NCBI GenBank assembly: GCA_964407105.1
Contig: CAYOUG010000004.1
Span: 6,936-70,935 of the forward strand
Direction: 5' to 3'
DNA: 64,000 bases
Source: an uncultured Candidatus Saccharibacteria bacterium
Lineage (GTDB): Bacteria > Patescibacteriota > Minisyncoccia > Phycocordibacterales > CALRHW01
How positions within the stretch are numbered: position 1 is the stretch's first letter; every line of letters starts with the position of its first letter. The notes beneath the pieces are model-generated. The model was not told where the DNA came from. It saw nothing but the letters and a program-made list of their open reading frames with translations, and did no database searches. A program made the position numbers and the translations under genes. Shown here in pieces: positions 7,896 to 62,480 of the stretch.

Positions 7896-7903
7896 TAATT
7901 TTT

Positions 7904-8248
7904 TTGTCTTGTGTCTATAAGCCGAATTCTGTATCTTTTCAGACGATGATTATTTATCTGTTCTGCTTGTTACCAAGCGAATCAAGCGGCACTCTCTGCT
8001 TTCGCAGAGCACGGCCTTGCATACACGTAAGGATTTAGCCGTTGCAATTTATGTGTTACCACACAAACTTATCCGATTACTCGGATACCGTATTCTTTCG
8101 AAATCCGGCGTCTCTGTTCGCACCTCGCAAGTTACCTTGGACGGGTGTTACCCGCTACGCTCTCCCGCGCGTCCGAAGGCGCGCGGGCTGTATGTTCGGA
8201 CTTTCCTCTATATGCTTTCGCATACAGCAATCATCCAACACAAGACCA
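7904..8248 (-). ncRNA. rnpB: RNase P RNA (bacterial type A)
   Basis: The minus-strand sequence contains the universally conserved P4 region GAGGAAAGTCCGAAC, followed by ...GCCCGCGCGCCTTCGGACGCGCGGGAG...GCGGGTAACACCCGT (cf. E. coli GGGUAACGCCUGGG). The 3' P4 strand ACAGAATTCGGCTTATAG matches E. coli ACAGAACCCGGCUUAUCG. A P1 helix pairs GTCTTGTGT (5' end) with ACACAAGAC (3' end). The region is a GC-rich island in AT-rich DNA. Confidence 0.87.
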
Positions 8249-11200: not shown

Positions 11201-14200
11201 AGATCTACATAATATTTTGTATCTGAACCCAAATCATTTGTTGCTATCCAGTCAGAAGAAGCTGCACTTCCTGAACTTGAATTTTGAATATTTGCTTGAA
11301 GATATCCATCTGTAGATGAGCCAATATTTAACATTGCGCCAGGAAACAATGATCCTGATCCGATAATTGTCTGTGAAAGATACGAAGTACTCGACGCATA
11401 TATTCCTGCCTTTGCCCACAGTGCTGTGGTGGTAGCTGAGGTATTTACTCCGTAGTTTGTAAGTGGTGTGAATGGGAAAGCACCTCCTGATGCAGTAATA
11501 GCTCCACAGGTTACTACCCCTGATGAATCGGTAGTAAGTGCACTTGATCCACTACAACCAGAGATACCTGAAATATTGAGTGCTGTGGTGGAAGCTGTGC
11601 CTGAGACGGTGATTGCGGTGGTTGAAGCGTATGGGAAGGTGGAGGCAGAGCTTGAGGTAGAGGTAATAGCACCACCAACAAAAAGAGTACTTGAGATGTA
11701 ACCCGCACCGTGTACTGAAAAAAGTTTCCCAGGTGTACTTGTAGCGACTCCCACATTTCCAAAAGCCGAAACACTATTATGACCAAGAACTACATTTCCA
11801 TTAGCGTTTCCTTGACCCGCATAAATAAAGACACTACCACCAGAAGCCTGAGCTTCTGTATCACTACCAGCCCCAATAAACACATCTCCTCCTTGAGTAG
11901 TTACAGTGTCCGCACCCAAAATAGAAAGTCGCCCACCTCCAGCAGTATCAAAACCGATTGTTCTGTTTGTGGCGGCCGATGTAAAATACAAATCACCATT
12001 TACTTCAAGTCTTGCGTTTGGACTCAATGTACCAACCCCAATAAATCCACTTGAATTCCATATTCCAGAACCTGGGAAGTAGGCTGTACCAGAAACAGAA
12101 AGTGCGGTAGTGGTTGCATTTGTTGTGGTTGAGTTATCAAAGATTGCGTTTGCAAAATATGAGGTTGATGATGCAAATATCCCAGACTGTGCCCACAGTG
12201 CTGTGGTGGTAGCTGAGGTATTTACTCCGTAGTTTGTAAGTGGTGTGAATGGGAAAGCTCCTCCTCCACCCACAATAGCTCCACAGGCTACTACTCCTGA
12301 TGCGTTGGTAGTAAGTGCGTTTGATCCACTACAACCCGAGATACCTGAAATATTGAGTGCTGTGGTAGAAGCTGTACCTGTGACAGTGATTGCGGTAGTT
12401 GAAGCGTATGGGAAGGTGGAGGCAGAGCTTGAAGTAGAGGTGATGGTGCCGCCGACAAAGAGAGTACTTGAGATGTAACCCGCGCCCTGAACAGCAAATT
12501 TTGTGCTTGGGGTTGCAGTAGCCACTCCAACATTTCCAAAAATATCAACGATAAATTGTGTCGAGGTTGCAATACCTGTTGAAGAAGAGGCTACTACAAA
12601 TTGTGGTATGAGACTGTTGTGAGAACTAACGGAAAGTTTTGCCCATGGAGTACTTGTACCAACACCAACTCTTCCTCCAGTATCAGCAATAATTACATTT
12701 CCATCGTAAGCAGGAACCCCTCCACTTGAAGCACCACCACGTATGTATATGTTCCCGCCACTTGTTGATCCGCCCACATCTTCATTTCCAGCAGCACCCG
12801 CCGCCAACAAAAGATGACTTCCTGCAACATCAGATGCACTTTGTCCAATAAATATTCTTCTTGTAGCAATTGAAGCTATACCTGGAAAAGAGATATCGCC
12901 AGCAACCAAAAGCTGAGGTAAACCGCTTGGATTTAGATCAGAATTTGATGTAGTAAATCTTTGGTAAGAACCAATTTGTACATACTGATTGTATACAGCG
13001 AGAACATCTCTATCTGATGATGTTGCTACAGTGAGTAGTTTCAAGCCGGGTTCATTATTTCCAAATCCAGTTATTGTTGAACCTACGATAGCAAGTTTCG
13101 CCTTTGCCGAGGTGGTACCTATATAAAGACCTGTTGCAAATGTACTTGTGGCAGAAAAATTCGCAGCCACAAATTGTGAAGTACTCGACGCAAATATTCC
13201 AGACTGTGCCCACAGTGCTGTGGTGGTAGCTGAGGTATTTACTCCGTAGTTTGTAAGTGGTGTGAATGGGAAAGCTCCTCCTCCACCCACAATAGCTCCA
13301 CAGGCTACTACTCCTGATGCGTTGGTAGTAAGTGCACTTGATCCACTACATCCTGAGATACCTGAAATATTGAGTGCAGTGGTGGAAGCTGTGCCTGAGA
13401 CGGTGATTGCTGTGGTTGAAGCGTATGGAAATACTGAAGCTGTTGATGTAGTAGCGGTGAAGTATGCGGATACGGTCTCTCCCACCACAGAAAGTTTTGC
13501 GTATGGTGAGGTGGTGCCGACTCCGACATTGCCGCCATTCAAAACTATTTTTCCATTAGCACCAGCAGAAGCGTTTGCGCCAGATGTGCCCGCAGTAATA
13601 TAAACACTACCTCCCGCACCACCAGTATCTGGACCGCCACTACCAGCTCCGCCATTACCTGCAGTAAGAGTTAAATCTCCACCAACACCCGCTGGACCAC
13701 CTGATCCACCAGCACCACCAGTACCTGTGGTTATGGTTATAGCACCACCCGCTCCACCAGCACCACCTGCTCCAGTTCCAGTTCCACCAGTTCCAGCAAA
13801 AAGAAGCATTTTGCCACCGACACCAGCCGTTGCTCCAGATCCACCCGTTCCACCAAGAACTGAAAACACTGTTGATGCACTAATACCAGAAGATTGATCG
13901 TTTCCTTTTACTGAAAACTTAGCAAATGGCGAACTTGTTCCCACTCCTACATTTCCAATAACATCAACAATAAAATCTGTTGTTGTTGCAAATACACCAG
14001 CAGTAGAAGAAGCAATTACAAATTGTGGTTGTGTTCCTCCGTTTGAACTAACAGAAAGTTTTGCCCATGGAGTAGTTGATGATACACCGATATTTCCAGT
14101 AGAGGTTACTCTTAAATATTCATTGCCTCCAGTAGAAAATCCAACAACATCAGCACTAGGAGAAAATACTCCAGTATTAGTATCACCACTAAATGAAAGA

Positions 14201-15777
14201 CCTGGGGTAGCGGCATTACCAGCACCAGCAATACCTAGAGTTTGAGTAGTATTAATTCTAGCTGTACCAGCAATCCAAAATTGTGTTGAAGCATTAACTA
14301 CACCGTCAGCTCGCCAATAATCGTTGGTGTTATTAAACATGAAATAATCTGTCGCTCCAGAAATTGCAGACGCCGCAAGATTTATACCATATACCGCCGC
14401 AGCACCAAGATTTGAAATATTAAGTCCTGCAAGACCAAGTCCTCCTCCGTCTATAGTAAGTCGTGAACTAGAACCGCTTGAAGCTCCGGGTGTTGATGTA
14501 CCAATACCAATAGATCCATTAAACGAAGATGTCGCGGTAGATGTACCGACAAAAGTTTCTCCTACCACCTGTCCCGCCACAGAAAGTTTTGCATAAGGTG
14601 AGGTGGTGCCGATTCCCACACTTCCAGTAGATGTCCATATTCCAGAACCTGGGAAATAAGCAGTACCAGAAACAGAAAGTGCGGTAGTGGTTGCATTTGT
14701 TGTGGTTGAGTTATCAAAGATTGCGTTTGCAAAATATGAGGTTGATGATGCAAATATCCCAGACTGTGCCCACAGTGCTGTGGTGGTAGCTGAGGTATTT
14801 ACTCCGTAGTTTGTAAGTGGTGTGAATGGGAAAGCTCCTCCTCCACCCACAATAGCTCCACAGGCTACTACTCCTGATGCGTTGGTAGTAAGTGCGTTTG
14901 ATCCACTACAACCCGAGATACCTGAAATATTGAGTGCTGTGGTAGAAGCTGTACCTGTGACAGTGATTGCGGTAGTTGAAGCGTATGGGAAGGTGGAGGC
15001 AGTAGATGTGGTAGCGGTGAAGTATGCGGATACTGTTTGACCAACAACAGAAAGTTTTGCATAAGGTGAGGTGGTGCCGATTCCTACATTTCCTCCACTT
15101 TTTAATGTAAGTACCGATGCAGAACTTGGACCAATAAAGTTTGCAATGTCACCCGCTCCGTTTTGTGTAATCGTCAAAAATGTTGATGCAGTATTTGTAG
15201 CGTTTGTTGCATCAGCGCGCAAAAATTGCTCGCTTGAAAGACCATCTAAGGTATCTGCAACAAACGCTGCCGGCACAGCACCAAGTTTTTTTCGAGGTGT
15301 CATTTCCCCATCCCAAACCGCACCACCACCAGATCCTCCCACCTCAACCCCGAGGTAAAGCGTTTGATTGAAATCTACACTCGTCAGCGGTGTAGAGCTT
15401 CCAAGCATAACACTGAAAAGACCGTTGGTAAGGGTGATACGATCACCTGCCGCAGTACTCCTGTCTTCATCCCAAATACTCGCTCCACCTGTTGCAACAG
15501 TGTAGAGCTTAAATCTCATGTGATACGTGCCATCAGCGACAGCAACATTGCTTGAATTAGTAAGCTTTCCCTGATAATTAATTTCTTTATTAAATGCAGC
15601 GTTTGCACTTTTTGTTTGGCCTAGAAACAAAAGTTGCGGCGATAAAAGAGATACGAGTACAACAAACACAACAGCTGTTGTATATACGCGTAGAAAACGA
15701 CGTGTGCATGCAAAAGCCGTCGTGCGCATTGTGACCGCATTTCTTATATCTATGATGTTTTTAATAAGCGTACGCAT
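8284..15777 (-). CDS. Giant secreted fibre/adhesin-like protein (2497 aa). Repetitive Gly/Thr/Ser-rich tail-fibre-like beta-helical repeats, Gly-rich block, C-terminal Peptidase_S74 intramolecular chaperone domain plus acidic C-terminal extension
   Basis: N-terminal signal/TM (VVFVVLVSLLSPQLLFLGQ). At least 10 copies of G(I/V)GT(T/S)SP(Y/W/F)AKLSV(V/S)G-type repeats. Four copies of a roughly 130-aa module (SAYFTATTSTAS...CSGS...ACGAIVGGGGAFPFTPLTNYGVNTSATTTALWAQSGIFASSTS). Near the C-terminus ...FGDRNKLDSVTSLTETDLDTYLDKIKGTTISTYRYKNEDESAPLRLGIVADEAPSEIL...YKLAVFTLGGVKALQHKFDNLEMRVTALENQL matches the endosialidase-chaperone (S74) domain consensus (SDRRLKenI...l..v.Y.yk......r.GfIAqEv..v.Pe.v........y.l...i.A.kel....eeLe). 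Confidence 0.85.
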   Translation of the reverse strand: MRTLIKNIIDIRNAVTMRTTAFACTRRFLRVYTTAVVFVVLVSLLSPQLLFLGQTKSANAAFNKEINYQGKLTNSSNVAVADGTYHMRFKLYTVATGGASIWDEDRSTAAGDRITLTNGLFSVMLGSSTPLTSVDFNQTLYLGVEVGGSGGGAVWDGEMTPRKKLGAVPAAFVADTLDGLSSEQFLRADATNATNTASTFLTITQNGAGDIANFIGPSSASVLTLKSGGNVGIGTTSPYAKLSVVGQTVSAYFTATTSTASTFPYASTTAITVTGTASTTALNISGISGCSGSNALTTNASGVVACGAIVGGGGAFPFTPLTNYGVNTSATTTALWAQSGIFASSTSYFANAIFDNSTTTNATTTALSVSGTAYFPGSGIWTSTGSVGIGTTSPYAKLSVAGQVVGETFVGTSTATSSFNGSIGIGTSTPGASSGSSSRLTIDGGGLGLAGLNISNLGAAAVYGINLAASAISGATDYFMFNNTNDYWRADGVVNASTQFWIAGTARINTTQTLGIAGAGNAATPGLSFSGDTNTGVFSPSADVVGFSTGGNEYLRVTSTGNIGVSSTTPWAKLSVSSNGGTQPQFVIASSTAGVFATTTDFIVDVIGNVGVGTSSPFAKFSVKGNDQSSGISASTVFSVLGGTGGSGATAGVGGKMLLFAGTGGTGTGAGGAGGAGGAITITTGTGGAGGSGGPAGVGGDLTLTAGNGGAGSGGPDTGGAGGSVYITAGTSGANASAGANGKIVLNGGNVGVGTTSPYAKLSVVGETVSAYFTATTSTASVFPYASTTAITVSGTASTTALNISGISGCSGSSALTTNASGVVACGAIVGGGGAFPFTPLTNYGVNTSATTTALWAQSGIFASSTSQFVAANFSATSTFATGLYIGTTSAKAKLAIVGSTITGFGNNEPGLKLLTVATSSDRDVLAVYNQYVQIGSYQRFTTSNSDLNPSGLPQLLVAGDISFPGIASIATRRIFIGQSASDVAGSHLLLAAGAAGNEDVGGSTSGGNIYIRGGASSGGVPAYDGNVIIADTGGRVGVGTSTPWAKLSVSSHNSLIPQFVVASSSTGIATSTQFIVDIFGNVGVATATPSTKFAVQGAGYISSTLFVGGTITSTSSSASTFPYASTTAITVTGTASTTALNISGISGCSGSNALTTNASGVVACGAIVGGGGAFPFTPLTNYGVNTSATTTALWAQSGIFASSTSYFANAIFDNSTTTNATTTALSVSGTAYFPGSGIWNSSGFIGVGTLSPNARLEVNGDLYFTSAATNRTIGFDTAGGGRLSILGADTVTTQGGDVFIGAGSDTEAQASGGSVFIYAGQGNANGNVVLGHNSVSAFGNVGVATSTPGKLFSVHGAGYISSTLFVGGAITSTSSSASTFPYASTTAITVSGTASTTALNISGISGCSGSSALTTDSSGVVTCGAITASGGAFPFTPLTNYGVNTSATTTALWAKAGIYASSTSYLSQTIIGSGSLFPGAMLNIGSSTDGYLQANIQNSSSGSAASSDWIATNDLGSDTKYYVDLGINSSTYNQAAFSITGANDAYLYSSDSNLAIGTASTTGNANIIFHTAGTLSSNERMRITSTGLVGIGTTTPYAKLSITSVNASSQIPLFAIASSSVSNATSTYFLVNNIGNVGIGTSSPVQKLDVAGNLVAGFSNAGAGRGVLLGNIVGDTTYPGIWFGANTVAPDTNSYSFLWDAGEGTIFNTPSGKSMGFRVNNATKATLSSVGNFGIGTTSAYAKLSVVGGGTDSILPSFIVATTSDWNNGGQQPLFYVTSTTTGLLDYARVAIGTTTTWGAGGLRDQLTVAGRVYTTWRYLSCDVGGSGGGAWSSDAAGACGDFAFDLDTDGTAILTRNTYPPAIQLQAGATNPTVGDGSALRTAVFTSSATSSPIFEAWVQATRTATATTTPLYVVGLTDAAFGADTGTVPTQGAFFTATSGPNWIMVTKNRSGETFTNTNVATSTTNFLKMRIELSTTSATYLINGAVVAVHNTTIPSATLQPITLVANFAGASVTANANPSLLVSLIRFWMDDPPGSLSTPMIAQSEEVGGVASLSEDDIKNYNSVSAAAITAPYLVGDPTQFVEGSVVAFHEKDTSRVRLSNKIYDANVFGVVGMTSVQNLGETNEHTVNVAMSGRVPVLISLENGDIKPGDYLTSSSISGVAMKATASGPVIGRAIQSYDENSKLYTKTVMMKVEPTYYYGNMLVQDTFGNVGIGTTSPSFKLTVSGDVAGYGFSVFGDRNKLDSVTSLTETDLDTYLDKIKGTTISTYRYKNEDESAPLRLGIVADEAPSEILSVGGKDIDAYKLAVFTLGGVKALQHKFDNLEMRVTALENQLGVASTTATSSATSTGIVNSESLIVAIMNYLKNFGVNIAQDVAQFKNVIVETFTVGSSEKPTGITLYDEVTGEPYCLKMSNGKMLSVAGECGQNNNVEVPTSEVQPPQTQAQTGGDEISGDASADADVNPPNDSSSVDQVQPEGESAPENSSPVEPEI
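11377..11706. repeat. Intragenic DNA repeat copy 1 (most divergent) inside the giant fibre gene
   Basis: Shares tgcccacagtgctgtggtggtagctgaggtatttactccgtagtttgtaagtggtgtgaatgggaaagc... through ...gagtacttgagatgtaacccgc with the copy at 12058-12486. The antisense ORF 11468-11701 translates nearly identically to the ORFs at 12245, 13262 and 14822. Confidence 0.75.
12058..12486. repeat. Intragenic DNA repeat copy 2 (about 430 bp), near-identical to copy 4
   Basis: 12058-12426 is essentially identical to 14635-15003 (about 369 bp), and then continues like copy 1. Confidence 0.8.
13166..13436. repeat. Intragenic DNA repeat copy 3
   Basis: agactgtgcccacagtgctgtggtggtagctgaggtatttactccgtagtttgtaagtggtgtgaatgggaaagctcctcctccacccacaatagctccacaggctactactcctgatgcgttggtagtaagtgc... 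is shared with copies 2 and 4. Confidence 0.8.
14635..15003. repeat. Intragenic DNA repeat copy 4, near-identical to copy 2
   Basis: See copy 2. The identity runs from ccatattccagaacctggg... through ...gcgtatgggaaggtggaggcag. Confidence 0.8.
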
Positions 15778-15780
15778 TAA

Positions 15781-17349
15781 TTATTTTTTGAGAAGCGCTC
15801 GGACAAATTTATATCCGAGAAAAAGCAACACAAAGATAAGTATTAGAACAAGAAGAACAGGAATATTTTCTGAAACAAGAACAAACAAACCGTGAAGTGA
15901 TAAATCTGTATTTGATGCAACATTTGGCATCAAAGACACGATCACACCTGCAAGTTTTTTTAATCCTTGATTTTTGTAATCAAGAATCGTTACACCAAAC
16001 TCAAACTTTCCTGAACGACCAAGCGGTGCAATGAGTGCCTCATAAGCTGTTTTCTCTTTATTTACTCGAAGCAAAAACGAAAATGTTTTAGAGTGATCTT
16101 CTGGGTCTCGCATTGTTACCGTAATCGTCTTTAGAATTTCTGGAACTTTTTTGTAATCAAGAGAAATTGTAAGTTCTCGATCTCCTTCTATTTCAACTGA
16201 GTGAGAAGTAACAGAAAGTTTTTTACCATTTTGAAAGAAATCTAAATCAAGCACCGTGAGTCCCGCAATCATTGGATGAACTTTTGATTGAGGTAACTCT
16301 TGTATTTCTCCAAAAAGATCTTCTGAATCATGTGGCTCGCCTATTTTATAGAGTCGGCCTTTTGTAACCGCTCCAGATGAATAGTTACCAAACTCATCGC
16401 GAGCAAAAACTGTGTAGTAATAAACTTTTCCATACTCCACATCTGTGTCTACTAGAAATTCAGCATTTCCTTCATAAACCACTTTTCCATCAAACAAATC
16501 TTTTGGATAAAATTTGTCAGATCGCACTACACGTACAGATTCAAAATCCACAAGAGGATTTTTCCAAGAGAGTGTGATTTTTTTATCATCACCCACCGCT
16601 TTTAAATTTGTAACGTTACTCGGCGGATTTGTATCAGGTAATGATGTAGTTACAAATTGTTGATTGTCTATCACAAGTTTTCGTCCATATGCATCAATAA
16701 GCTCGATTCTGAAATAATATGTCGTACCCGGTGTAAGACTTTCTATACTAATAGAGTGATTTGTGAGAAAGAGCTGTTCGGCAAGAGTACCGATCTCATA
16801 ATCTGGAGTTTCTCCCCACGACACAATCGCTTGTGTGTAGATGTTTGTCTCAAAATTTATGACAGAACTTGTAACGTCTGGTTGCACCGACATGCCAAGC
16901 AATTTAAGCAACAAAGTTCCCGATATGTTTCCATCACTGGTTGTTGGTGGTGGAACTGAGGCTTCAAGTGTTGTCGCAGTAGCGGTTGCTGATGTTGGTG
17001 AATAGTTGAACGATGAATCAAATGCGGTCACTGTATAGTCGTATGTTGTTTCCGGAGAAAGACCAGTATTTGAATATGTCGTTGCGGTAGATGTTGCAAT
17101 AAACACTAGATCACGAAAGACTTGATATCCTGCAACACCATAATTATCTGTTGATGCAGTCCATGAAAGATTTATCTGCGAACTCGATACTGCAGTAGCT
17201 GTAAGATTTGTGGGAGTAGATGGGGCGACACCGTCAACGACCGTTATTGATTGCTCTACTTGAAACGTATCTTCTGCCGCTTGTATAGATAGCACCGCAC
17301 CACAAAGTGTGACGGTGAAAACCATAAAAATGTATAGAAGTTTTTTCAT
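15781..17349 (-). CDS. Cell-surface protein with fibronectin type III domains, N-terminal signal peptide and C-terminal TM anchor
   Basis: 522 aa. Signal peptide (MKKLLYIFMVFTVTLCGAVLSIQA). FN3 hallmark motifs (NLTATAVSSSQINLSWTASTDNYGVAGYQVFRD; KKITLSWKNPLVDFESVRVVRSDKFYP...YYYTVFARDEFGN). C-terminal hydrophobic anchor IPVLLVLILIFVLLFLGYKFVRALLKK. The stop lies 3 nt from the giant gene start. Confidence 0.7.
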   Translation of the reverse strand: MKKLLYIFMVFTVTLCGAVLSIQAAEDTFQVEQSITVVDGVAPSTPTNLTATAVSSSQINLSWTASTDNYGVAGYQVFRDLVFIATSTATTYSNTGLSPETTYDYTVTAFDSSFNYSPTSATATATTLEASVPPPTTSDGNISGTLLLKLLGMSVQPDVTSSVINFETNIYTQAIVSWGETPDYEIGTLAEQLFLTNHSISIESLTPGTTYYFRIELIDAYGRKLVIDNQQFVTTSLPDTNPPSNVTNLKAVGDDKKITLSWKNPLVDFESVRVVRSDKFYPKDLFDGKVVYEGNAEFLVDTDVEYGKVYYYTVFARDEFGNYSSGAVTKGRLYKIGEPHDSEDLFGEIQELPQSKVHPMIAGLTVLDLDFFQNGKKLSVTSHSVEIEGDRELTISLDYKKVPEILKTITVTMRDPEDHSKTFSFLLRVNKEKTAYEALIAPLGRSGKFEFGVTILDYKNQGLKKLAGVIVSLMPNVASNTDLSLHGLFVLVSENIPVLLVLILIFVLLFLGYKFVRALLKK

Positions 17350-17355
17350 TACGTT

Positions 17356-18120
17356 TTAAAGGGGTAGTGCAGTAACTGTTGTTGTGGCTAGATATACTCC
17401 TTCTGGTTGAAGATGTGCAGTGCCAGATTGAGCACGAAATTTTAGTGTTGTAGCGGTACCTGATGGATGATTTGGAGAAGTACTTCTACTTATTACTTCA
17501 TTCGCAGTTGAGAGATTGTACCAACACGCATCTGCTGTATCGGTTGTGTCAACATTGCATGTGTTAGATCCATTGTCTTTAAACTTTTGAACAATGTGTG
17601 AACCTTCAGGTGTAAAAGCAAATTCTGATGCAGAAGCAGCGATTGAAAAGGTGAAATCTGGATTTGCACCAGCTGGTGTATAATCCGCAAAACTATTTGC
17701 ACCACTCACAAGCGCTGGTGAAGAACTTGCTTTGATACTAAGTTCATAACCAGAAGGACTGTCGGTAATAACCGTCACAACCGCGGATCCATTTGAAGTA
17801 CCGCCGGTCACACCACCAATATTTGGACTCATAACCACATCAGAAACAGAAGTAATTGCGATATACACTTCTTGCATCTGTTGATACCCTGCTTTTATTT
17901 TGTAGAGTGTGCCTGAAGATTCGCCAGTAGCTACTTCTCCAGCAGTACTTTCTTGCGTATAACTTGTAGAAGTAGAAAGTCCTCCTCCAAAATTAACGCT
18001 GTCGCTTTGAATTTTGTATAACGTACCGGTCATTTGAGCAAAAGAAACATTGCCAAATGTTGATACCACATACAAAGAAACTGAAACAAATAAAGCTGTA
18101 TACAGATAAGCCTTAAACAT
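17356..18120 (-). CDS. Secreted Ser/Thr-rich protein, paralog A of 19104-19808
   Basis: 254 aa with signal peptide. Shares with 19104-19808 the motifs VTGGTS.G, GY...IKASSSPA, KFKDNGSNTCN, two conserved Cys (..NTCN... ..CW..LST) and a T/A-rich C-terminus (TATATLTAVT / ATTTVTALPL). Confidence 0.55.
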   Translation of the reverse strand: MFKAYLYTALFVSVSLYVVSTFGNVSFAQMTGTLYKIQSDSVNFGGGLSTSTSYTQESTAGEVATGESSGTLYKIKAGYQQMQEVYIAITSVSDVVMSPNIGGVTGGTSNGSAVVTVITDSPSGYELSIKASSSPALVSGANSFADYTPAGANPDFTFSIAASASEFAFTPEGSHIVQKFKDNGSNTCNVDTTDTADACWYNLSTANEVISRSTSPNHPSGTATTLKFRAQSGTAHLQPEGVYLATTTVTALPL

Positions 18121-18122
18121 GA

Positions 18123-19094
18123 TTATGATTTCTTTCGAATTTCAAACCGAGTAACAATAAATCGAATTACAAAGAGCAAGATTATAATGATCACACACGC
18201 AAGAACGAGAAGTTTTATTGGAATTACCCAAAAAGTAAATTCCATTGTGTCTACAATGTTGTCATAACCCCTATTTATAGAAGCTACGGCCGTGTATTTT
18301 CCGAGAAGAAAACCACTATTCCATTGCACCTCTCGAAGTCTCAGCGAGTCAGGCATCGCAAACCAAGGAGCCACTTCTACATTTCCAATTTCCTTTCCAA
18401 GAATATTTTTTATACTGATTTCTCCATAAGGATTTTCGTGCACACTTCCTTTGTTTTCATAAAGAAGTTCAAACTGCACTGGACCAGCACCATAAATTTT
18501 CTTTGTATTTTTTGTTTGGAATTGTGTAAGTTTTCCTTCTTGTTTTACCTCACCCGGTACTCGAATAAAAAACAATGTTCCTATGCGAGTAACTATTGCA
18601 CTTGATGGACCTTTGGCGCCCGTTGGTTTTGAAGCGGTACTTACAAGAACACTTCCATACAAACCACCCGGCTGTGCATCTGCTGGAACAAACACAGTCA
18701 CAGGAATAATTGCTCTCTGTGCGTGCATGAGTTCAAAACTTTTTTCTGGAAAAGAAATATAATCTTTTAGAGAATATGGACCGTGATCTTCACCAAGAAG
18801 AACAACTGTATCTGAGGTATTTTTAGAACCACTAAAATCTTCGGTATCAAGATAAAAGATACGAGTATCTCCCATTCTGTTACTTACTGAAATATTTACT
18901 GTTTTACTTTCTCCGGGTTTTATTTCAAGTTCCTGTTTTCCAGGACCAACCACGAAGTCACTTCGCACAATATCGTCAGGAAGCGCTTCTATCGTGTAAG
19001 AAAAAACTTTAGAAAAAGGAAAAAGAGACACTAAACAAAAAAACATAATGACACCAACCTTCCAGGATATGTAATTTTTTTCTGTAGACGTCAT
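18123..19094 (-). CDS. Surface protein with N-terminal signal peptide, beta-rich ectodomain and C-terminal TM anchor
   Basis: 323 aa. Hydrophobic N-terminal segment, ectodomain beginning YTIEALPDDIVRSDFVVGPGKQELEIKPGESKTVNISVSN, C-terminal TM LLVLACVIIIILLFVIRFIV followed by basic residues. Flanked by the two paralogous secreted proteins. Confidence 0.5.
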   Translation of the reverse strand: MTSTEKNYISWKVGVIMFFCLVSLFPFSKVFSYTIEALPDDIVRSDFVVGPGKQELEIKPGESKTVNISVSNRMGDTRIFYLDTEDFSGSKNTSDTVVLLGEDHGPYSLKDYISFPEKSFELMHAQRAIIPVTVFVPADAQPGGLYGSVLVSTASKPTGAKGPSSAIVTRIGTLFFIRVPGEVKQEGKLTQFQTKNTKKIYGAGPVQFELLYENKGSVHENPYGEISIKNILGKEIGNVEVAPWFAMPDSLRLREVQWNSGFLLGKYTAVASINRGYDNIVDTMEFTFWVIPIKLLVLACVIIIILLFVIRFIVTRFEIRKKS

Positions 19095-19103
19095 ACGGTT
19101 AAT

Positions 19104-19808
19104 TTAGTTTGTAACTGCTGTGAGGGTGGCTGTAGCTGTGTATGTGTCTTGAGCAAGACCTGAATTTGAACCAACAGAAACTCTAAAATAAACACTTGAT
19201 GTCGAACCAGATGCTGTTGTTTCGCTAGAAGATACTATGGTTGATGTTGCCGAAGTAGAAAGACCCATCCAACATGATCCAGATCCACCAGTATCGGCCG
19301 ATCCCGTATTGCATGTATTTGAACCATTATCTTTAAACTTTGTTGCAAGTTCTGCTGTAGTACTTGCAGAAACACTAAAACCAAATTTATGTGTACCCGC
19401 ACCCGCTGCTGAATAAGCATAATCAGGAACACCAGTAACCGCAGGAGAATAATCTGATATTGATCCACCTTGAGAATCTGCTTGCATTGCGGGCGAACTA
19501 CTTGCTTTTATTGTCATGGTATAACCAGCAGCATTGTTGGTTGTAACAATTGCTGTTGTTGTACCGTATGACGTACCTCCAGTAACACCGGCAATAGAAC
19601 CGTTCATTGTGACGTTGTTTGCTCCGGTTAAGAAAGCAATTTCTGAGGTGATTGATTGAGTAACTGTAAATTGATCTTCAACCGCTCGACTTAGTGTGGG
19701 TTCAATAACCACAAAAGCCAACGCAAGTGTAAGAGTCAAAAAGAAACTCGCTGCAATCGCCTGTCTTACATTTATTTTTTTAATCATAATTTTTAATTTA
19801 ACTTTCAA
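19104..19808 (-). CDS. Secreted Ser/Thr-rich protein, paralog B of 17356-18120
   Basis: 234 aa. Signal peptide (start possibly at an internal Met, MIKKINV...). Homology to 17356-18120 through the IKASSSPA / KFKDNGSNTCN / CW.GLST motifs. Confidence 0.55.
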   Translation of the reverse strand: MKVKLKIMIKKINVRQAIAASFFLTLTLALAFVVIEPTLSRAVEDQFTVTQSITSEIAFLTGANNVTMNGSIAGVTGGTSYGTTTAIVTTNNAAGYTMTIKASSSPAMQADSQGGSISDYSPAVTGVPDYAYSAAGAGTHKFGFSVSASTTAELATKFKDNGSNTCNTGSADTGGSGSCWMGLSTSATSTIVSSSETTASGSTSSVYFRVSVGSNSGLAQDTYTATATLTAVTN

Positions 19809-19836
19809 ACTTTAATAATATTTCGACCTTTACAGA

Positions 19837-19889
19837 CTTACGTCTGTTCTCGAGGCTCGCTTACTACAAGCGCCGAGAACAGACGTAAG
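19837..19889. other. GC-rich perfect 16-bp inverted repeat (stem-loop) between two minus-strand genes
   Basis: cttacgtctgttctcg (19837-19852) and cgagaacagacgtaag (19874-19889) around a 21-nt loop. Followed on the plus strand by tatttatttttt. Unusually GC-rich for this window. Confidence 0.5.
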
Positions 19890-19899
19890 TATTTATTTT

Positions 19900-20799
19900 T
19901 TAATCATCAACCGGTACAAGAACATATAAATATTCTTGATCATTTGTATTTTTAAATATTGGTTTTATCACACCAGAAGAACCTGTTTCGTCTGGTACGA
20001 CCTGTGTTTGATCAGAAAATGAATTCTTAATTCTCTGTTTTACTTTTTCATTTTTAAATTCATCTCCTGTACCTGGCACCACAATCATTCCCGTCTTTGA
20101 ATCTTGCGATACAGAATTTCGATGGTTTATATCATCACGCACAACCACTGTTTTATTTATATTCATACGCAACAAAGATGAAATAAATCTGTATGAATTT
20201 AAAGCGATTGAATCAAATTTGTTACGCAACGAATGCGTAAGATCACGAACACTAATCTGGATATTATTTACATTTGAAACACTTGCGGAATCTCGCACAA
20301 GTGCAAGTGTTTTAGATGTTTTAGAAACAAAAGAAGTTATAAATATTTTTTCTGAAGAAATAAAATGTTCTGAAACAACAGCAATATTTGTTTGATATTG
20401 TTTGTTGTTTGAACCATAAGCAAAAAAAGCTATTGCAGAAATTACAATAAACAAAAGGGCATAAAACATTCCTGAATGTGAAAGAAAAGAAAATACTTCA
20501 GAGGGAGCAAATTCTTTTTTGTTCGTTTTTAGGTTTTCTGACGCTTTAAAAACCGAAGCATTTTGTGACACAACACTGACTGGAGGAAATACGATTGTTC
20601 CACGAATTTTTTCAGATGCATCTTTTTGGTGTTCGATGATCGAATCTTCGCTCACAAACCAACCCCTTCCCACCTGTCGGCACTCAAGTTTGCCAGATCG
20701 ACAAAGTTGACCGATATAATCCGAATTATAGCCAGATATTTCTGAACCTCGTTTTGCCGAGATATATTTTTTTCCGTTGAAATAGAGCTCGCTATTCAT
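19900..20799 (-). CDS. Membrane-anchored protein with N-terminal excisionase/MerR-like HTH, single TM and extracytoplasmic C-terminal domain
   Basis: 299 aa. The N-terminal about 60 aa (KKYISAKRGSEISGYNSDYIGQLCRSGKLECRQVGRGWFVSEDSI) has the HTH_17/Xis-MerR pattern (helix...G.L...R.G...W.v.e..i). TM segment MFYALLFIVISAIAFFAYG. Ser/Asn-rich C-terminal domain. Confidence 0.45.
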   Translation of the reverse strand: MNSELYFNGKKYISAKRGSEISGYNSDYIGQLCRSGKLECRQVGRGWFVSEDSIIEHQKDASEKIRGTIVFPPVSVVSQNASVFKASENLKTNKKEFAPSEVFSFLSHSGMFYALLFIVISAIAFFAYGSNNKQYQTNIAVVSEHFISSEKIFITSFVSKTSKTLALVRDSASVSNVNNIQISVRDLTHSLRNKFDSIALNSYRFISSLLRMNINKTVVVRDDINHRNSVSQDSKTGMIVVPGTGDEFKNEKVKQRIKNSFSDQTQVVPDETGSSGVIKPIFKNTNDQEYLYVLVPVDD

Positions 20800-21133
20800 T
20801 GGTAATATTATAGCTTTTTGAGTCGCATAAAAGAACGATTTTTTTGTGGATAACTAAGGTTTTTTTAAGATTATTTTTTTATTCAAAAAAGATCAAAAAT
20901 ATTTATAAAAATATGTAGATATAACAACAAATGATCTATTTTTTATTACCAAAAAATTCTATAAACAAAATTTGGTTGGTAAATAAACAAAAAAATTACG
21001 TTAGAATAAATTAATACAAAAAAAGTCACTTTATAAAAATATAAGTTATCAACATATACAAACCTTGATAAATAGAAGTAATAAACTTATAATTATTACT
21101 AATGTTTATAAAGGTTTAGTAATGTTATGCACA

Positions 21134-21376
21134 ATGAATAATTCATTCTTAACAATCAAACAAGTATCTAAAATTCTAGGTGTAACACCACTTACACTTA
21201 GAAATTGGGACAACTCTGGTAAGTTTGAAGCTACCCGACACCCCATAAATAACTACAGAGTATACAAGCGTGAAGACGTGGAAGCATTCATTCATAAAAT
21301 GGGCACAAAAAACTCCACAACACGACAAAAGAGAAATCAAGTTAAAAAGCTCAATATACTGCATTTGGATGATTAA
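21134..21376 (+). CDS. Small standalone excisionase/MerR-family HTH DNA-binding protein (about 80 aa)
   Basis: LTIKQVSKILGVTPLTLRNWDNSGKFEATRHPINNYRVYKREDVEAFI is a textbook HTH_17 (excisionase/MerR-type) domain. The tabulated ORF starts at 21065 but MNNSFLTIKQ at 21134 (or MLCTM at 21122) is the more plausible start. Basic C-terminal tail. Confidence 0.6.
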   Translation: MNNSFLTIKQVSKILGVTPLTLRNWDNSGKFEATRHPINNYRVYKREDVEAFIHKMGTKNSTTRQKRNQVKKLNILHLDD

Positions 21377-21420
21377 AAATTTATAACTATTTGTAATCTG
21401 AAGAAACAAAATTAACCATT

Positions 21421-21455
21421 AAAAAATCACTTCAGAAAACGAAGTGATTTTTTAA
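21421..21455. terminator. Bidirectional intrinsic terminator between the HTH gene and gatB
   Basis: aaaaaatcacttc-agaaaac-gaagtgatttttt; 12-bp stem flanked by A-run and T-run. Serves the + strand HTH gene and the minus strand gatB (stop at 21474). Confidence 0.65.
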
Positions 21456-21473
21456 TGGTTAATTAATTTATTT

Positions 21474-22916
21474 TTATTTAAGTAAAGACACAAGAACTTC
21501 TTTTAACACTGATGGATTCGCTGAACCCTTTGTTGCTTTCATTCCCTGCCCCACCAAAAATTGCAACGCAGTTTCTTTTCCTTTTTTATAATCAGCGACA
21601 ACGTTTGGATTATCAATAATAATTTTTTCAATAATAATTTTTAATTCTTCCGTGTTACTTTGTTGTAATAAATTTCTAGACGAAGCAATCTCTTCCGGTT
21701 TACCCCCCTCCTCAAACATAATCTTCAAAATATCTTTTGCTCCACGAGATGAGATTTTTTGATCATTTACCATACTCATAAGGAGTGAAAAATTTTCTGG
21801 GCTTATGGTCGGCACAACACCAAACACATCTTCTATATTGGTGTTGGTTGATTTTATTAAACCAAGAAAATCTGAGGAAATATAATTTGAAGTAAGTTTT
21901 ATAAGTTTTATATCACCAACAAAAAAACGGATCACATCTTCAAAATATTTACTAATCAATGGTGTGCTCACATATACAAACGCGTCTTCCCTCTTCATAC
22001 CATACTCACTTATGTATCTCTCCCGCTTCTTCCACGGAAGCTCTGGCATATCACTCATCAACTCATCATAAGAAAATTCTTTTATTTTCGAGATATATAA
22101 TTTAGGAAGATCTGGATCTGGAAAATATCTATAGTCGTGAGATTCTTCTTTTAGACGCTGTGAGAAAGTTATTTCCTTTTTTTCGTCCCATCCGCGTGTT
22201 TCTTGCACAACCTTCTCTCCCGCTTCTAGTAATTCTATGTGTCGTTTCATTTCAAACGCAATAGCTTTTTCAACCGCCCTAAAAGAATTTAGATTTTTCA
22301 CTTCTACCTTGGTGCCCATTTTCCCACTTACTTTTGATACAGAAATATTTGCTTCTACACGCATTTCTCCTTTTTCCATATTTGCTTCTCCAGCACCAAG
22401 ATACTGAAGTAAGAGCTGTAGCTCACGTGCAAAATTTGAAGCATCTTCAGCACTGTGTATCACAGGTTCTGTTACAAGCTCCATAAGTGGCACACCAGCA
22501 CGATTAAAATCAACGAGACTATAATCCCCCACATTGTGAGATGATTTAGCTGTATCTTCTTCTAAATGTATTCGAGTTAAAGCTATTCCTGACACCGATC
22601 CTCCTTCTACAAGTGGATGTTTGTATTGACTAATCTGATAACCTTTTGGAATATCTGGATAAAAATAGTTTTTGCGATCAAACTCAGTAAAGTCTGCTAT
22701 CTTGCCTCCAACAGCAAGACCCATACGAAGAACATGTCGGACCGCCTCTTTGTTTATAACAGGTAGTGTACCGGGGTGTCCCATACATACTGGACATACA
22801 TTTACATTAGGACGTTTTTCTTCTGGATCATTTTTTGAATTACAAAACATCTTACTCTTTGTGTTGAGTTCGGCATGAATTTCAAGACCTACAGTGAGTT
22901 TGTATTCCGATTCCAT
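21474..22916 (-). CDS. gatB: Asp-tRNA(Asn)/Glu-tRNA(Gln) amidotransferase subunit B
   Basis: 480 aa. N-terminus KLTVGLEIHAELNTKSKMFC...CPVCMGHPGTLPVINKEAV and the C-terminal GatB/YqeY domain are diagnostic for GatB. Confidence 0.92.
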   Translation of the reverse strand: MESEYKLTVGLEIHAELNTKSKMFCNSKNDPEEKRPNVNVCPVCMGHPGTLPVINKEAVRHVLRMGLAVGGKIADFTEFDRKNYFYPDIPKGYQISQYKHPLVEGGSVSGIALTRIHLEEDTAKSSHNVGDYSLVDFNRAGVPLMELVTEPVIHSAEDASNFARELQLLLQYLGAGEANMEKGEMRVEANISVSKVSGKMGTKVEVKNLNSFRAVEKAIAFEMKRHIELLEAGEKVVQETRGWDEKKEITFSQRLKEESHDYRYFPDPDLPKLYISKIKEFSYDELMSDMPELPWKKRERYISEYGMKREDAFVYVSTPLISKYFEDVIRFFVGDIKLIKLTSNYISSDFLGLIKSTNTNIEDVFGVVPTISPENFSLLMSMVNDQKISSRGAKDILKIMFEEGGKPEEIASSRNLLQQSNTEELKIIIEKIIIDNPNVVADYKKGKETALQFLVGQGMKATKGSANPSVLKEVLVSLLK

Positions 22917-23940: not shown

Positions 23941-24834
23941 CTAGTTTTCAAGGGCGAGATGTGCAAGAGCAAGTGCTCCCTCTTTAGAACGTGCAGCAGA
24001 AGTAAAACGTTTATTATGACAAAAAACCGCATCTGAAACCCCTGTAACCATTTGCAACTCAGCGTCTTTTTTTCCAGCCCACGCTTCAGGTAAATCTTTC
24101 CGACTTTTATACGAAAATCGATCTTGCTGAATCGTTTTAAGTCTCCACATATCTTTGGCACTATTTGGATACACCACAAAAAGTGGTTCTGAATATTTTA
24201 AAACAACGTTGTACCAATTATAATCATTATCAAGGATTATTAATCTTTTATCTTCAGCTAATTCATAAGCTTCTTGTACATATTTTTCACCCTCTTTCAC
24301 ATCACGTATTACAGCAATTTCTCTCAACAAAAGAGTTTGAGCAAAAGCAACCATCTGCATAAATGATTGATCGGCTGCCGCATCGTCTTCTTTCCATGTT
24401 GGATTAAAAGAACTTATAAAATTTTGAACAAGATATGGAAAAACATTATCTATACGGGGAGTATAAGTATCAACCCCATTATCACTAGCATCAAGTGGTG
24501 AAATAATTTTTTCATCTATATGCAATGCCACTTCTTCACTACCCGCAATTTGTTTTCCATACGCTTTCCAAACAAGACCACACGATGCATAAGGTACTCC
24601 GTTTTCTCTAATCCCCGCTCCCCCTATCTGATGATGATCAAATCTTTTTAATGTCTCATCGTACATTCCCCCAACATCTACCACATAATCACCAGTCTGT
24701 ATAACAGATTCATCACGTGTACGGATGATATTACTCTTCACACCTTTTCCGAGCATAAGTAAAAGTATGGCCACGGCAAAAACTTCATCTGTATGAAAAT
24801 CTGCATTGTGCGTAATAATATTTACAACTTTCAT
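23941..24834 (-). CDS. MYG1/UPF0160 family metal-dependent hydrolase
   Basis: 297 aa. N-terminal ITHNADFHTDEVFAVAILLLM and DHHQ motif are characteristic of the MYG1 (UPF0160) family. Confidence 0.75.
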   Translation of the reverse strand: MKVVNIITHNADFHTDEVFAVAILLLMLGKGVKSNIIRTRDESVIQTGDYVVDVGGMYDETLKRFDHHQIGGAGIRENGVPYASCGLVWKAYGKQIAGSEEVALHIDEKIISPLDASDNGVDTYTPRIDNVFPYLVQNFISSFNPTWKEDDAAADQSFMQMVAFAQTLLLREIAVIRDVKEGEKYVQEAYELAEDKRLIILDNDYNWYNVVLKYSEPLFVVYPNSAKDMWRLKTIQQDRFSYKSRKDLPEAWAGKKDAELQMVTGVSDAVFCHNKRFTSAARSKEGALALAHLALEN

Positions 24835-30100: not shown

Positions 30101-30190
30101 CTATCGTCGGCGAGAAGCTTTTCGTTTTGTTGTCTTCTTCGCTTTTTTTGTAGTTCGTTTCTTAGTAGATTTTCGTTTTTTTGCAGCCAT
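30101..30190 (-). CDS. Tiny Lys/Arg-rich ORF (29 aa, MAAKKRKSTKKRTTKKAKKTTKRKASRRR)
   Basis: ATG at 30190 (minus), stop at 30101-30103, immediately followed by a terminator hairpin. 22 of 29 residues are K/R. Not in the supplied ORF track (below the size cutoff). Confidence 0.3.
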   Translation of the reverse strand: MAAKKRKSTKKRTTKKAKKTTKRKASRRR

Positions 30191-30352
30191 AGTATTTTTT
30201 TAATTTTTAAAGTGACTTTGTACAACGACCTTTCTCTTACTGACAAAGATTACATATTCATTATCATACAAATATTTTTCAAACACAATAATTTTTTACA
30301 CACATGTGTGGATAACAAATTATTTTATTTTTTTATTAATAAAAAAATAAAA

Positions 30353-31384
30353 TTAAAAACCAAGCATTACAACTTCAGTCTCAAGATTAATGTGTGTATT
30401 TTTTTTCACACAAGCGCGCATTGATTCAGCGAGTTCTAAAATTTCCTGTGCTGTTCCATTACTAAAATTTATTAATACAAGGGGTTGGTGTTCATAAACA
30501 CCCACATTACCCGCACGATATCCTTTATATTTACATACATAATCAAGAATCCATGCAGCAGGAATTTTTTTCTTTCCATCTTGAGTATCAAAAGAAGGCA
30601 TCGTGGGAAACATACCTTTCAACATGTCATGATGATCTGTAGAAATAATTGGATTTTTAAAAAATGAACCAGCTGTACCAAATATCGAAAGATCTGGAAG
30701 TTTTGATTTACGTATAGCAAGCACAGCTTCACGTACTTCTTTGGTTGATGGATTTAATTTGTTATTTTGTGCAAAAAAATCTTTTAAATCTTTATAAGAA
30801 ATATCAGATACACCACCTAAAGAAAGAATGAAAGCGACACGTGTAATAATATATTTTTTTCCTTCATTTTGTTTAAAAATACTGTCTCTATATCCAAATT
30901 TACAATCTTGCGCTTGAAAAATTTTAAAAATCATTGATTCTGTGTCAAAAACCTCAACCCAAGAAAACATATCTTTTATTTCTTTTCCATAAGCGCCAAT
31001 ATTTTGCACAGGCGAAGCTCCCACTGTGCCAGGAATACCAGATAAATTTTCAAAACCAAATAAACCACGTTCAACACTAAGCGCTACCACATCATCCCAA
31101 CGCTCACCAGCACCCACAACAACCTCCACACACCCACCAGAAATAGTGTTCCATTCTACTCCCCTAATTTCCATTTTAAACACAGCCCCAGCAAAACCAT
31201 CGTCTGAAACAAGAATATTTGATCCTTCTCCAAGTACAAACCAAGGAAGTTTTTTTTCACAAACAAAAGTAACGGCTTCAGTAAGTTGGTCTTTAGATTG
31301 AATTGGAATAAAATACTGAGCCTTACCACCAATACGAAATGTAGTATAAAAAGAAAGAGGAACCTGTAACTGCAACGACTTCAT
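30353..31384 (-). CDS. murB: UDP-N-acetylenolpyruvoylglucosamine reductase MurB
   Basis: 343 aa. FAD-binding N-terminal motifs FRIGGKAQYF and LGEGSNILVSDDGFAGAVFKM, and the MurB C-terminal domain. Confidence 0.9.
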   Translation of the reverse strand: MKSLQLQVPLSFYTTFRIGGKAQYFIPIQSKDQLTEAVTFVCEKKLPWFVLGEGSNILVSDDGFAGAVFKMEIRGVEWNTISGGCVEVVVGAGERWDDVVALSVERGLFGFENLSGIPGTVGASPVQNIGAYGKEIKDMFSWVEVFDTESMIFKIFQAQDCKFGYRDSIFKQNEGKKYIITRVAFILSLGGVSDISYKDLKDFFAQNNKLNPSTKEVREAVLAIRKSKLPDLSIFGTAGSFFKNPIISTDHHDMLKGMFPTMPSFDTQDGKKKIPAAWILDYVCKYKGYRAGNVGVYEHQPLVLINFSNGTAQEILELAESMRACVKKNTHINLETEVVMLGF

Positions 31385-60533: not shown

Positions 60534-60575
60534 ATCTGTACACTATCGCAACAAAACACAAACGATCAAAAATGT

Positions 60576-62459: not shown

Positions 62460-62480
62460 TCATTATACCACACGAATTAT

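Follow-up and report, generated by a model that had tools for sequence, protein, structure and literature searches.

Bacteria of the candidate phyla radiation (CPR), also known as Patescibacteria, live attached to host cells. We know of nothing on how their Pam pili are regulated or anchored on the cytoplasmic side, and the structure of these pili was described only in 2026. [quoted passage not shown] Membrane-tethered one-component regulators and BldC-like proteins are both known kinds of protein. BldC itself, from Streptomyces, is a MerR-like protein made of a winged helix-turn-helix (wHTH) only, which binds tandem direct repeats head-to-tail (PMC5859096). Here we analyse a 64,000-nucleotide stretch of contig CAYOUG010000004.1 (hereafter the window), from an uncultured Candidatus Saccharibacteria bacterium, where a gene for a 299-amino acid (aa) membrane protein with a wHTH and a divergent gene for an 80-aa MerR-like protein stand at the head of a Pam-like pilus/fibre cluster. 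This gene pair is probably a control or anchoring module of the host-attachment apparatus. Tentatively, and at somewhat short of an even chance, we take the 299-aa protein to be a membrane-tethered DNA-binding regulator leading a Pam-like pilus/fibre operon of Paceibacteria.

The original prediction had placed two divergent open reading frames (ORFs) at 19900-20799 (minus strand) and 21134-21376 (plus strand). Both are present there in the same orientations, separated by an AT-rich spacer (20800-21133) of 334 bp rather than the 330 first given. The former, which is the first gene of the pilus/fibre cluster, encodes a protein with the following parts:

19900-20799, minus strand: gene of the 299-aa bitopic protein with wHTH, TM helix, helical stalk and conserved C-terminal ectodomain (ORF, 71 homologues, AlphaFold2 (AF2) model, synteny)
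20611-20799, minus strand: N-terminal cytoplasmic winged helix-turn-helix of the excisionase/MerR type, residues 1-63 (AF2, Foldseek, HTH_17 matches)
20407-20478, minus strand: single TM helix, residues about 108-131 (hydropathy up to 2.23, helix in the AF2 model, positive-inside rule)
19903-20097, minus strand: conserved C-terminal ectodomain, residues about 235-299, the most conserved part of the family

The start of this ORF fits the family consensus MxxELxFEGKKYIS. Over residues 1-63, the AF2 model, built on 61 sequences, reaches a predicted local distance difference test score (pLDDT) of about 97 and has the topology beta-beta-H-H-beta-beta-H, with the three helices and the beta-hairpin wing of a wHTH fold superposable on Xis and on the MerR N-domain. 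When compared with the PDB by Foldseek, this domain ranks the Pukovnik Xis first (TM-score 0.68-0.70, root mean square deviation 1.6 Å), with RacA (with DNA), RdfS, BldC and TraN as further matches, and the closest solved structure by sequence profile is TraN/AM32 of pIP501 (E 0.018). Against Pfam HTH_17 (PF12728), the complete window protein scores 15.8 bits (E=0.017) and its isolated N-domain 19.7 bits (E=0.0011), both below the cut-off of 27; among the relatives, 23 of 61 full-length proteins and 26 of 32 isolated N-domains match HTH_17 at E<0.01, the best of them at 6.4e-10. The excisionase/MerR-type wHTH foreseen in both proteins is therefore present, in the 299-aa one by its fold and the HTH_17 matches of its relatives, and in the 80-aa one by Pfam thresholds. 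The two are not recent paralogues, an idea dropped because BLASTP of the 299-aa N-domain against the small protein gave no alignment. The recognition helix, SDYIGQLCRSGK, is nearly invariant across about 400 species, as are the arginines of the wing, and Y24, D27, R34 and G44 are invariant across the wHTH subfamilies. A profile of the whole family searched against PDB sequences found only designed coiled coils, which were discarded as noise from the helical stalk.

The positive-inside rule, applied to 76 relatives, sets the N-terminus inside and the C-terminus outside (3.2 versus 1.45 K+R): the 299-aa protein is a type-II membrane protein, with a cytoplasmic wHTH, one TM helix, a stalk and an external C-terminal domain. 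The AF2 model shows two long helices at 133-209, which form the stalk, then a disordered linker and a small alpha/beta C-terminal domain with the pattern G..VVP...DE..K..IK.SFSDE..V.PD..G.SGVIKP.FK....Q.YLYVLVPV. The single TM helix and the external domain had been correctly predicted; the ectodomain measures about 170 aa, not 190, and is rich in S, V and N.

Relatives of the 299-aa protein were searched in a set of 5.8 billion proteins (n=71), and a scan of one genome per species yielded 415 encoding stretches, whose best 80 loci were compared. All of these 80 come from metagenome-assembled genomes of Patescibacteria, namely Paceibacteria/Parcubacteria including Zambryski-, Taylor-, Nomura- and Wolfebacteria. 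BLASTP of the window proteins against the ORFs of these loci revealed a usual gene order: obg, gatB, the divergent small MerR-like gene, the HTH-TM gene, pilin, chaperone-like protein, pilin, FnIII protein and giant protein. The C-terminal signature is found in 52 of the 55 complete short forms of the protein, and after 50 of these 52 a pilus- or fibre-type gene follows within 1.5 kb in the same orientation, the two exceptions being followed by a second copy of the HTH-TM gene. The divergent small gene accompanies 45 of 50 short-form loci. The pair thus adjoins a pilus/fibre locus in dozens of species, far beyond chance, so that the two points on which the original prediction had staked itself, a match to an HTH fold and synteny with fibre loci, both hold.

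A wider view of the family comes from the C-terminal domain, of about 65-70 aa, which occurs in 749 cluster representatives, C-terminal every time, joined to a wHTH of which no fewer than three divergent forms occur, namely A (DYIGQLCR), B (YTRDHLGYLIRKG) and D (YSADYLKLRARQGKL). The co-occurrence of the N-terminal wHTH and the C-terminal ectodomain over at least three divergent subfamilies argues for a functional coupling across the membrane. At the loci of subfamily B, which are known from metagenomes, genes for pilin, chaperone, FnIII protein and giant protein follow as well, and the small MerR-like neighbour is absent. The conserved core is then the wHTH, the TM helix and the C-terminal domain, followed by a pilus operon, and the small divergent gene is an addition of Paceibacteria to that core. 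The proteins of subfamily C (metagenome loci L095-L161) are soluble and 170-210 aa long; they have the same wHTH (YTRDHLGLMIRQGKL) and lack a TM helix. Some members of the family carry two tandem N-terminal copies of the wHTH (P0004, P0014, P0016, P0018 and P0019 in alignment A1).

The promoter of the HTH-TM gene has a conserved layout, and two elements stand out in the window:

20807-20812, minus strand: -10 box TATAAT, ending 7 nt before the ATG, of a leaderless-type promoter with no -35 (sequence)
20845-20853, minus strand: TTATCCACA box, which equals the consensus DnaA box and lies 32 nt upstream of the -10 (exact match)

These were followed over 62 intergenic regions, with spacings counted at 61 loci and the presence of the box at 81 genes. 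It was TTATCCACA that k-mer enrichment singled out in the intergenic regions; relative to the ATG its position is fixed (-54 or -62), and it is oriented with the gene. The box lies 30-33 nt upstream of TATAAT in 53/61 loci. The distance from the end of TATAAT to the ATG is 6-9 nt in 46/61 loci and 14-17 nt in 15/61; the compared intergenic regions share no conserved -35 for this gene. Altogether, the box precedes 71 of the 81 genes of HTH-TM type, including giant fusions (described below) and loci with no small gene. As a composite (box, 29-34 nt, TAnnnT), 63 of its 82 matches in 1.13 Mb are upstream of HTH-TM genes, and of the exact boxes in 1.07 Mb (n=77), 53 are at HTH-TM promoters and 24 elsewhere. 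Only three exact copies exist in the 64 kb, and the idea of a general promoter element of this genome was rejected on that account.

The box recurs in subfamilies B and C. All 13 genes of subfamily B examined have the box (TTATCCACA or TTGTCCACA) upstream, and so do 51 of 60 upstream regions of subfamily C, about 32 nt before TATAAT in the examples checked; the promoters of subfamily C read TT(A/G)TCCACA, about 32 nt, TATAAT and then a palindrome in the leader, ATATCGCG-N3-CGCGATAT. Subfamily B has a palindrome of its own (TTATCTCG...CGAGATAA), and a TATC/TTATC core is common to the box and to these two palindromes. In the giant-fusion clade, another palindrome, TCTCGG-N4-6-CCGAGA, is found just upstream of the box at several long-form loci plus L013 (L013, L046, L053, L069, L071, L077). 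In yet another clade (L017, L022, L061, L072), CCGAGATA abuts the -10. The box is thus a shared upstream promoter element that does not track the sequence of the recognition helix; this agrees with DnaA or another common factor, and it agrees as well with an autoregulating wHTH family that keeps Y24, D27, R34 and G44.

Signs of leaderless starts are seen at other genes of the window too, where a -10-like hexamer lies 5-12 nt before the start and no Shine-Dalgarno sequence is present (1819-3606, 27504-30035, 30353-31384 and 53749-54786). Such start-adjacent hexamers suggest that leaderless or non-Shine-Dalgarno initiation is widespread in this genome and would be a property of the genome as a whole. 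A literature search on promoters and leaderless transcripts of Patescibacteria returned nothing relevant.

Why, then, a regulator? The reading is favoured by the fold of the N-domain, by the invariance of its recognition helix and wing, by the existence of soluble relatives, which are typical of DNA-binding domain families, by the tandem duplications of the wHTH, by the operon-leading position of the gene and by the coupling of N- and C-terminal domains. The original prediction of a transcription factor sensing an external cue was sound as regards the cytoplasmic HTH, the single TM helix and the external domain; its regulatory or sensory part is plausible, DNA binding being suggested by the fold, and a role as anchor fits the same architecture as well.

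Several observations weigh against this regulator reading. In 25 of the loci, the same wHTH, linker and TM helix form the N-terminus of giant proteins of 1000-2700 aa, an arrangement that comes naturally to an anchor and would be unusual in a transcription factor. The complete giant fusions, of 1442, 1494 and 2717 aa, carry fibre-type repeats (GNVGIGTTSP...) and occupy the same position in the locus behind the same promoter box. The N-domain of the window protein has a net charge of 0 (the family mean is +2.7, mildly basic), and CbpM and DafA, which bind protein rather than DNA, appear among its fold matches. The C-terminal domain, when modelled alone by AF2, reaches a pLDDT of 57, too poor for a fold search, so that this low-confidence model does not indicate a binding partner. 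At the loci with a duplicated wHTH, the upstream box is not duplicated, and in the comparison of subfamilies B and C it does not co-vary with the recognition helix, which weakens the case for autoregulation and removes one of its supports. Furthermore, the box also precedes an unrelated small basic ORF, and since it equals the DnaA-box consensus, it may not necessarily be a site of the 299-aa protein.

Much of this would suit a structural anchor or adaptor, in which the wHTH-TM part is the membrane base of the surface fibre and the wHTH a protein-binding handle, in the way that the HTH of RodZ binds MreB. In the giant forms the fibre would be fused to this base, and in the short forms the pilus or fibre would dock non-covalently through the YLYVLVPV strand, possibly in a donor-strand-like manner. 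We regard this role as unlikely on balance, if still a substantial minority prospect. The 25 long forms, with the same N-module before fibre-like repeats, and the near-neutral N-domain are in keeping with it, as is the finding that separate pilin and chaperone genes are missing from the available flanks of the giant-fusion loci. The final strand of the C-terminal domain, the most conserved of all, is unpacked in both AF2 models and shows the alternating hydrophobic pattern of strand pairing in trans; in the published Pam model, the last pilin receives a strand from a membrane-anchored terminator (bioRxiv 10.64898/2026.03.03.709456). However, a PamR-like FnIII protein, anchored by a C-terminal TM helix, is already among the products of the locus, and an N-terminal signal or anchor sequence is present on the giant fibre of the window itself. 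Conservation is also centred on the recognition helix and wing, with their invariant arginines, as expected for nucleic-acid binding, and the soluble wHTH relatives have palindromic operator-like sites of their own. The giant-fusion loci belong to sister lineages within L045-L080 (for example L050:10001-18154, L063:10001-14329 and L064:6604-11088).

The identity of the box raises a different possibility, that of a genuine DnaA box through which DnaA drives the promoter and ties the synthesis of the apparatus to the replication or division cycle, with both HTH proteins acting elsewhere or only at the promoter of the small gene. This is quite possible, though we lean against it. In the window, TTATCCACA (TTATNCACA) agrees exactly with the DnaA-box consensus, and the exact 9-mer is present in 36/61 loci; another 7/61 have TTGTCCACA, which we take to be the actinobacterial variant of the DnaA box. 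That genes with differing recognition helices share the box, and that it also precedes a 29-aa K/R-rich ORF unrelated to them, upstream of secA, agrees with this, as do its two orientations in subfamily B. Yet 13/61 loci carry TTATCCCCA, which departs from the consensus and breaks the CACA core. The tight phasing with the -10 and the rarity of the box elsewhere also speak against DnaA, as does the TTATC core common to box and subfamily palindromes. Three unrelated gene contexts sharing only a wHTH are unlikely to be all DnaA targets, and autoregulation by the family is the simpler account. No dnaA gene was found among the scanned proteins of the window, and no oriC in the window.

The 29-aa ORF itself (MAAKKRKSTKKRTTKKAKKTTKRKASRRR; 30101-30190, minus strand), which is very basic, has its box at 30307-30315 (minus strand); its leader contains a AAAGGTCG motif, and a terminator separates it from secA. 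Among 16 related loci, 9 have the box upstream of secA, and 8 of these have the K/R-rich ORF too.

Since RacA is among the best fold matches, and the fold is also that of architectural proteins, Xis and RacA among them, the wHTH could also be imagined as a tether that joins chromosome or nucleoid to the membrane at the attachment organelle, RacA-like but membrane-integral and non-regulatory. The attachment of the module to polar-type surface structures would agree with such a role. We consider it improbable: no repeated chromosomal sites were found, and a dedicated conserved promoter together with the operon position is typical of regulators.

Regulator and anchor are compatible roles, a fibre-coupled regulator being both at once. 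A more daring extension of the regulator reading, and a distinctly unlikely one in its full form, is a fibre-coupled transmembrane transcription factor, in which a TM-tethered wHTH with either a pilus-docking ectodomain or a giant host-binding fibre would act on TTATC-type sites including TTATCCACA. In an ultra-small epibiont, a single protein would then link gene expression to host contact or to the state of pilus assembly, through mechanical or oligomeric signalling or through a Notch-like release of the N-domain.

The second gene of the pair and its control region have the following features:

21134-21376, plus strand: gene of the 80-aa soluble MerR/HTH_17 protein, wHTH plus basic tail (Pfam, NCBIfam)
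21065-21093, plus strand: sigma-70-type promoter of the small gene, TTGATA, 17 nt, TATAAT (11/12 match)
21046-21054, plus strand: TTATCAACA, forming the left half of a dyad of TTATCAA type; the right half of this dyad overlaps with the small gene's -35
21087-21128, plus strand: tandem 10-bp direct repeats (TAnTAAnGTTTAnTAAnGTTTA) from the -10 over the start site and leader (Gibbs motif, position weight matrix (PWM), inverted repeat)
21410-21464, no strand: bidirectional intrinsic terminator formed by a perfect 24-bp inverted repeat and separating the small gene from gatB

In Pfam, the 80-aa protein scores above the cut-offs for MerR (PF00376, 38.4 bits, cut-off 28.2), HTH_17 (38.5, cut-off 27) and PF13411 (37.6, cut-off 21.6), and matches the N-domain of CarA (2jml) at E 1.1e-5. 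Its recognition helix, TPLTLRNWD, is invariant; it has a net charge of +8 and ends after a basic tail of 25 aa. Traits of canonical MerR proteins are absent, there being no coiled-coil dimerisation helix or effector domain and a promoter spacer of 17 bp versus 19-20 bp, with the repeats over the -10, start site and -35 and not as a dyad operator within the spacer. Against NCBIfam it scores below the cut-offs both for BldC (NF033787; 22.2 bits, cut-off 77) and for excisionase (TIGR01764; 24.3, cut-off 28.8). The original prediction of a soluble HTH_17 protein of 80 aa with its own terminator was accurate, the terminator being bidirectional.

At the promoter of the small gene, the conserved -35 region reads AAACATTGATAA, and in most of the 62 promoters a Gibbs search placed the start of TAnTAAnGTTTAnTAAnGTTTA at 2-4 nt after the -10. 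Their PWM scores have a median of 21.4, a 10th percentile of 14.9 and a minimum of -0.1, and the window has matches at 21087, 21097 and 21107, in a 10-bp register. Tandem direct repeats of about 9-10 bp, as in operators of the BldC type, are thus present here. The -35 region holds inverted copies of the repeat unit, so that the whole promoter is enclosed in a 34-nt imperfect palindrome (21051-21084 / 21093-21126), whose right arm is made up of the tandem repeats. The palindrome noticed at 21077-21100 by the first reading of this DNA is real, and is just the inner part of this larger one, which is centred on the -10. PWM matches concentrate in the promoter of the small gene, with 74 there versus 26 in the remaining 1.07 Mb. 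The 80-aa protein is probably a repressor of its own sigma-70 promoter, attaching head-to-tail to the 10-bp repeats. A PWM scan for the same operator at the pilus/fibre genes found none; operator-like sites are thus confined to the protein's own promoter, which leaves adjacency as the one link to a control of the fibre locus. The TTATCAA-type sites may belong instead to the wHTH of the membrane protein. PWM matches within the MYG1-like gene (24218-24249, plus strand, the antisense strand of the gene) were rejected as an operator, being explained by the conserved peptide IILDNDY, and likewise at L045 and L068.

The excisionase-type fold of both proteins and the palindromic sequences of the spacer had also raised the idea that the pair acts as Xis-like recombination directionality factors for an invertible promoter or phase-variable fibres. 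We hold this to be very improbable, and the control by DNA inversion or phase variation put forward in the original prediction has been abandoned. No integrase, invertase or transposase was found among 41 scanned predicted proteins of the 64-kb window (four ORFs of at least 150 aa, at 59331-63692, lay outside the scan), and a search for inverted repeats bracketing the promoter returned only AT-rich chance pairs. The box and the -10 face the gene in nearly all 62 intergenic regions, the locus stands among housekeeping genes (gatB, obg) across species, and the palindrome, with the -10 at its centre, is a local operator.

Between the regulator candidate and the pilin genes, two further conserved elements are found:

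19836-19890, minus strand: conserved 24-bp stem-loop directly 3' of the stop codon of the 299-aa gene (-38.1 kcal/mol, z = -7)
19823-19830, minus strand: AAGGTCGA motif, then ATTATT, before the first pilin-like gene (GGTCGA invariant in 19 loci)

The sequence of the stem-loop varies and its pairing is kept, with compensatory changes at 15 of 16 pairs over 19 loci (alignment A4), and AAAGGTCG is also found upstream of the first pilin gene at subfamily B loci. Stem-loop and GGTCGA may serve the pilin genes as operator-promoter, or act as an attenuator or as an element for processing or stabilisation. There are no Rfam matches within 19000-22000.

Returning to the membrane-tethered regulator, whose fold, topology, synteny and conserved cis-elements are shown by the analysis, we infer its DNA binding, targets and signal and would picture the module as follows. 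The ectodomain would dock to or sense pilus or fibre components, and the wHTH would bind DNA at the membrane of a very small cell, with the TTATCCACA box, the TTATC-type dyads and the GGTCGA element as candidate sites. The state of the attachment apparatus would so be coupled to how its own operon is transcribed; the logic would be that of ToxR/CadC, with another DNA-binding fold. Transcription would start from the leaderless-type promoter, whose box would be bound by DnaA or by proteins of the wHTH family. The BldC/Xis-like 80-aa protein would repress its own promoter through the repeats that flank or cover the -10 and the start site, and the stem-loop with GGTCGA would separate the expression of the regulator from that of the pilin genes.

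The cluster headed by this module in the window is composed of five genes:

8284-19808, minus strand: downstream Pam-like surface cluster (Pfam and NCBIfam)
19104-19808, minus strand: pilin-like protein, 234 aa, secreted
18123-19094, minus strand: TM-anchored chaperone-like protein, 323 aa, with a weak WxLIP/DUF916 match and a C-terminal TM helix
17356-18120, minus strand: pilin-like protein, 254 aa, secreted
15781-17349, minus strand: FnIII protein with a C-terminal TM helix
8284-15777, minus strand: 2497-aa fibre with a weak S74 chaperone signature

The 254-aa pilin-like protein weakly matches the NCBIfam family 'CPR-type pilus protein PamT' (E 3.4e-6, 26.6 bits, cut-off 240), and no sequence relative of the 234-aa one was found in the PDB. 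Upstream of the gene pair lie gatB and obg, with the MYG1-like gene and secA farther upstream. Directly downstream of the giant fibre gene is a class A RNase P RNA (7902-8246, minus strand; 108.5 bits). The remainder of the window, whose G+C content is 35.6%, consists of housekeeping genes and a large glycan-synthesis cluster. This surface-glycan cluster (31645-33843 and 38278-59257) encodes a Wzy-like O-antigen ligase with TPR repeats, NeuB and a cytidylyltransferase, together with numerous glycosyl- and methyltransferases as well as a flippase-like protein. Another membrane protein with TPR repeats (5345-7777) adjoins MurJ, and tRNA-Phe and tRNA-Arg are encoded near the start of the window (245-320 and 771-843, both minus strand).

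The interest of the module resides in its conservation, always leading a pilus/fibre locus, across hundreds of species of Paceibacteria. It offers a set of candidates for the control of this locus: two proteins of DNA-binding type, a phased box identical to the DnaA box, a BldC-like repeat operator and a conserved RNA stem-loop. If the membrane protein does bind DNA, it would represent a new class of membrane-tethered regulator, with the fibre in some lineages physically continuous with the DNA-binding domain. If it is an anchor, it would supply the missing cytoplasmic and membrane base of a Pam-type filament.

How does this module compare with what has been described? A literature search on HTH_17, transmembrane and CPR returned nothing on the 299-aa protein, and the main text of the Pam preprint, which lacks the terms 'helix-turn-helix', 'HTH', 'excisionase' and 'transcription', describes no HTH-TM protein or small MerR-like regulator (bioRxiv 10.64898/2026.03.03.709456). 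In the literature searches and in the preprint we found no description of a wHTH of excisionase type that a TM helix joins to a CPR-specific ectodomain or to giant fibres, nor of its place at the head of Pam-like operons in Paceibacteria, nor of the box, the repeat operator and the stem-loop that go with it. The parts list of the window cluster fits the pam operon, a likeness known here from the genes and with the weak PamT match as its only sequence link.

For the 80-aa protein, the nearest systems are BldC, Xis and RdfS, with which it shares a wHTH-only build lacking a dimerisation or effector domain, and 10-bp tandem repeats at a promoter, a type of site that BldC and Xis occupy as head-to-tail multimers. 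It differs from BldC in its repeat (GTTTAnTAAn versus AATTnnnnC) and in its sub-threshold NCBIfam scores, and from excisionases in that no integrase partner is found among the scanned window proteins. TraN (AM32) of the Enterococcus plasmid pIP501 has an excisionase-like wHTH, binds double-stranded DNA and, with its two tandem copies, resembles the duplicated members of the 299-aa family; unlike the 299-aa protein, it is a soluble cytoplasmic accessory protein of a type IV secretion system (T4SS), with neither TM helix nor ectodomain. RacA uses a MerR-like wHTH to anchor DNA to a cell-pole structure, but is soluble and has no link to pilus loci. RodZ resembles the 299-aa protein in its layout, having an HTH in the cytoplasm, a single TM helix and a domain outside the cell; its HTH, however, is of the Xre type and binds protein, and it has no link to pilus loci either.

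A parallel in overall logic is with ToxR, CadC and TcpP, which, like the 299-aa protein, have an N-terminal cytoplasmic winged helix, a single TM helix and an external C-terminal domain. As with cadC, the gene stands directly upstream of the operon that it would control and is co-oriented with it. The differences from ToxR and CadC lie at both ends of the molecule: the DNA-binding-type domain belongs to the excisionase/MerR (HTH_17) group and not to OmpR/PhoB, and the ectodomain is unrelated to theirs and CPR-specific, in a module that is also found fused to giant fibres.

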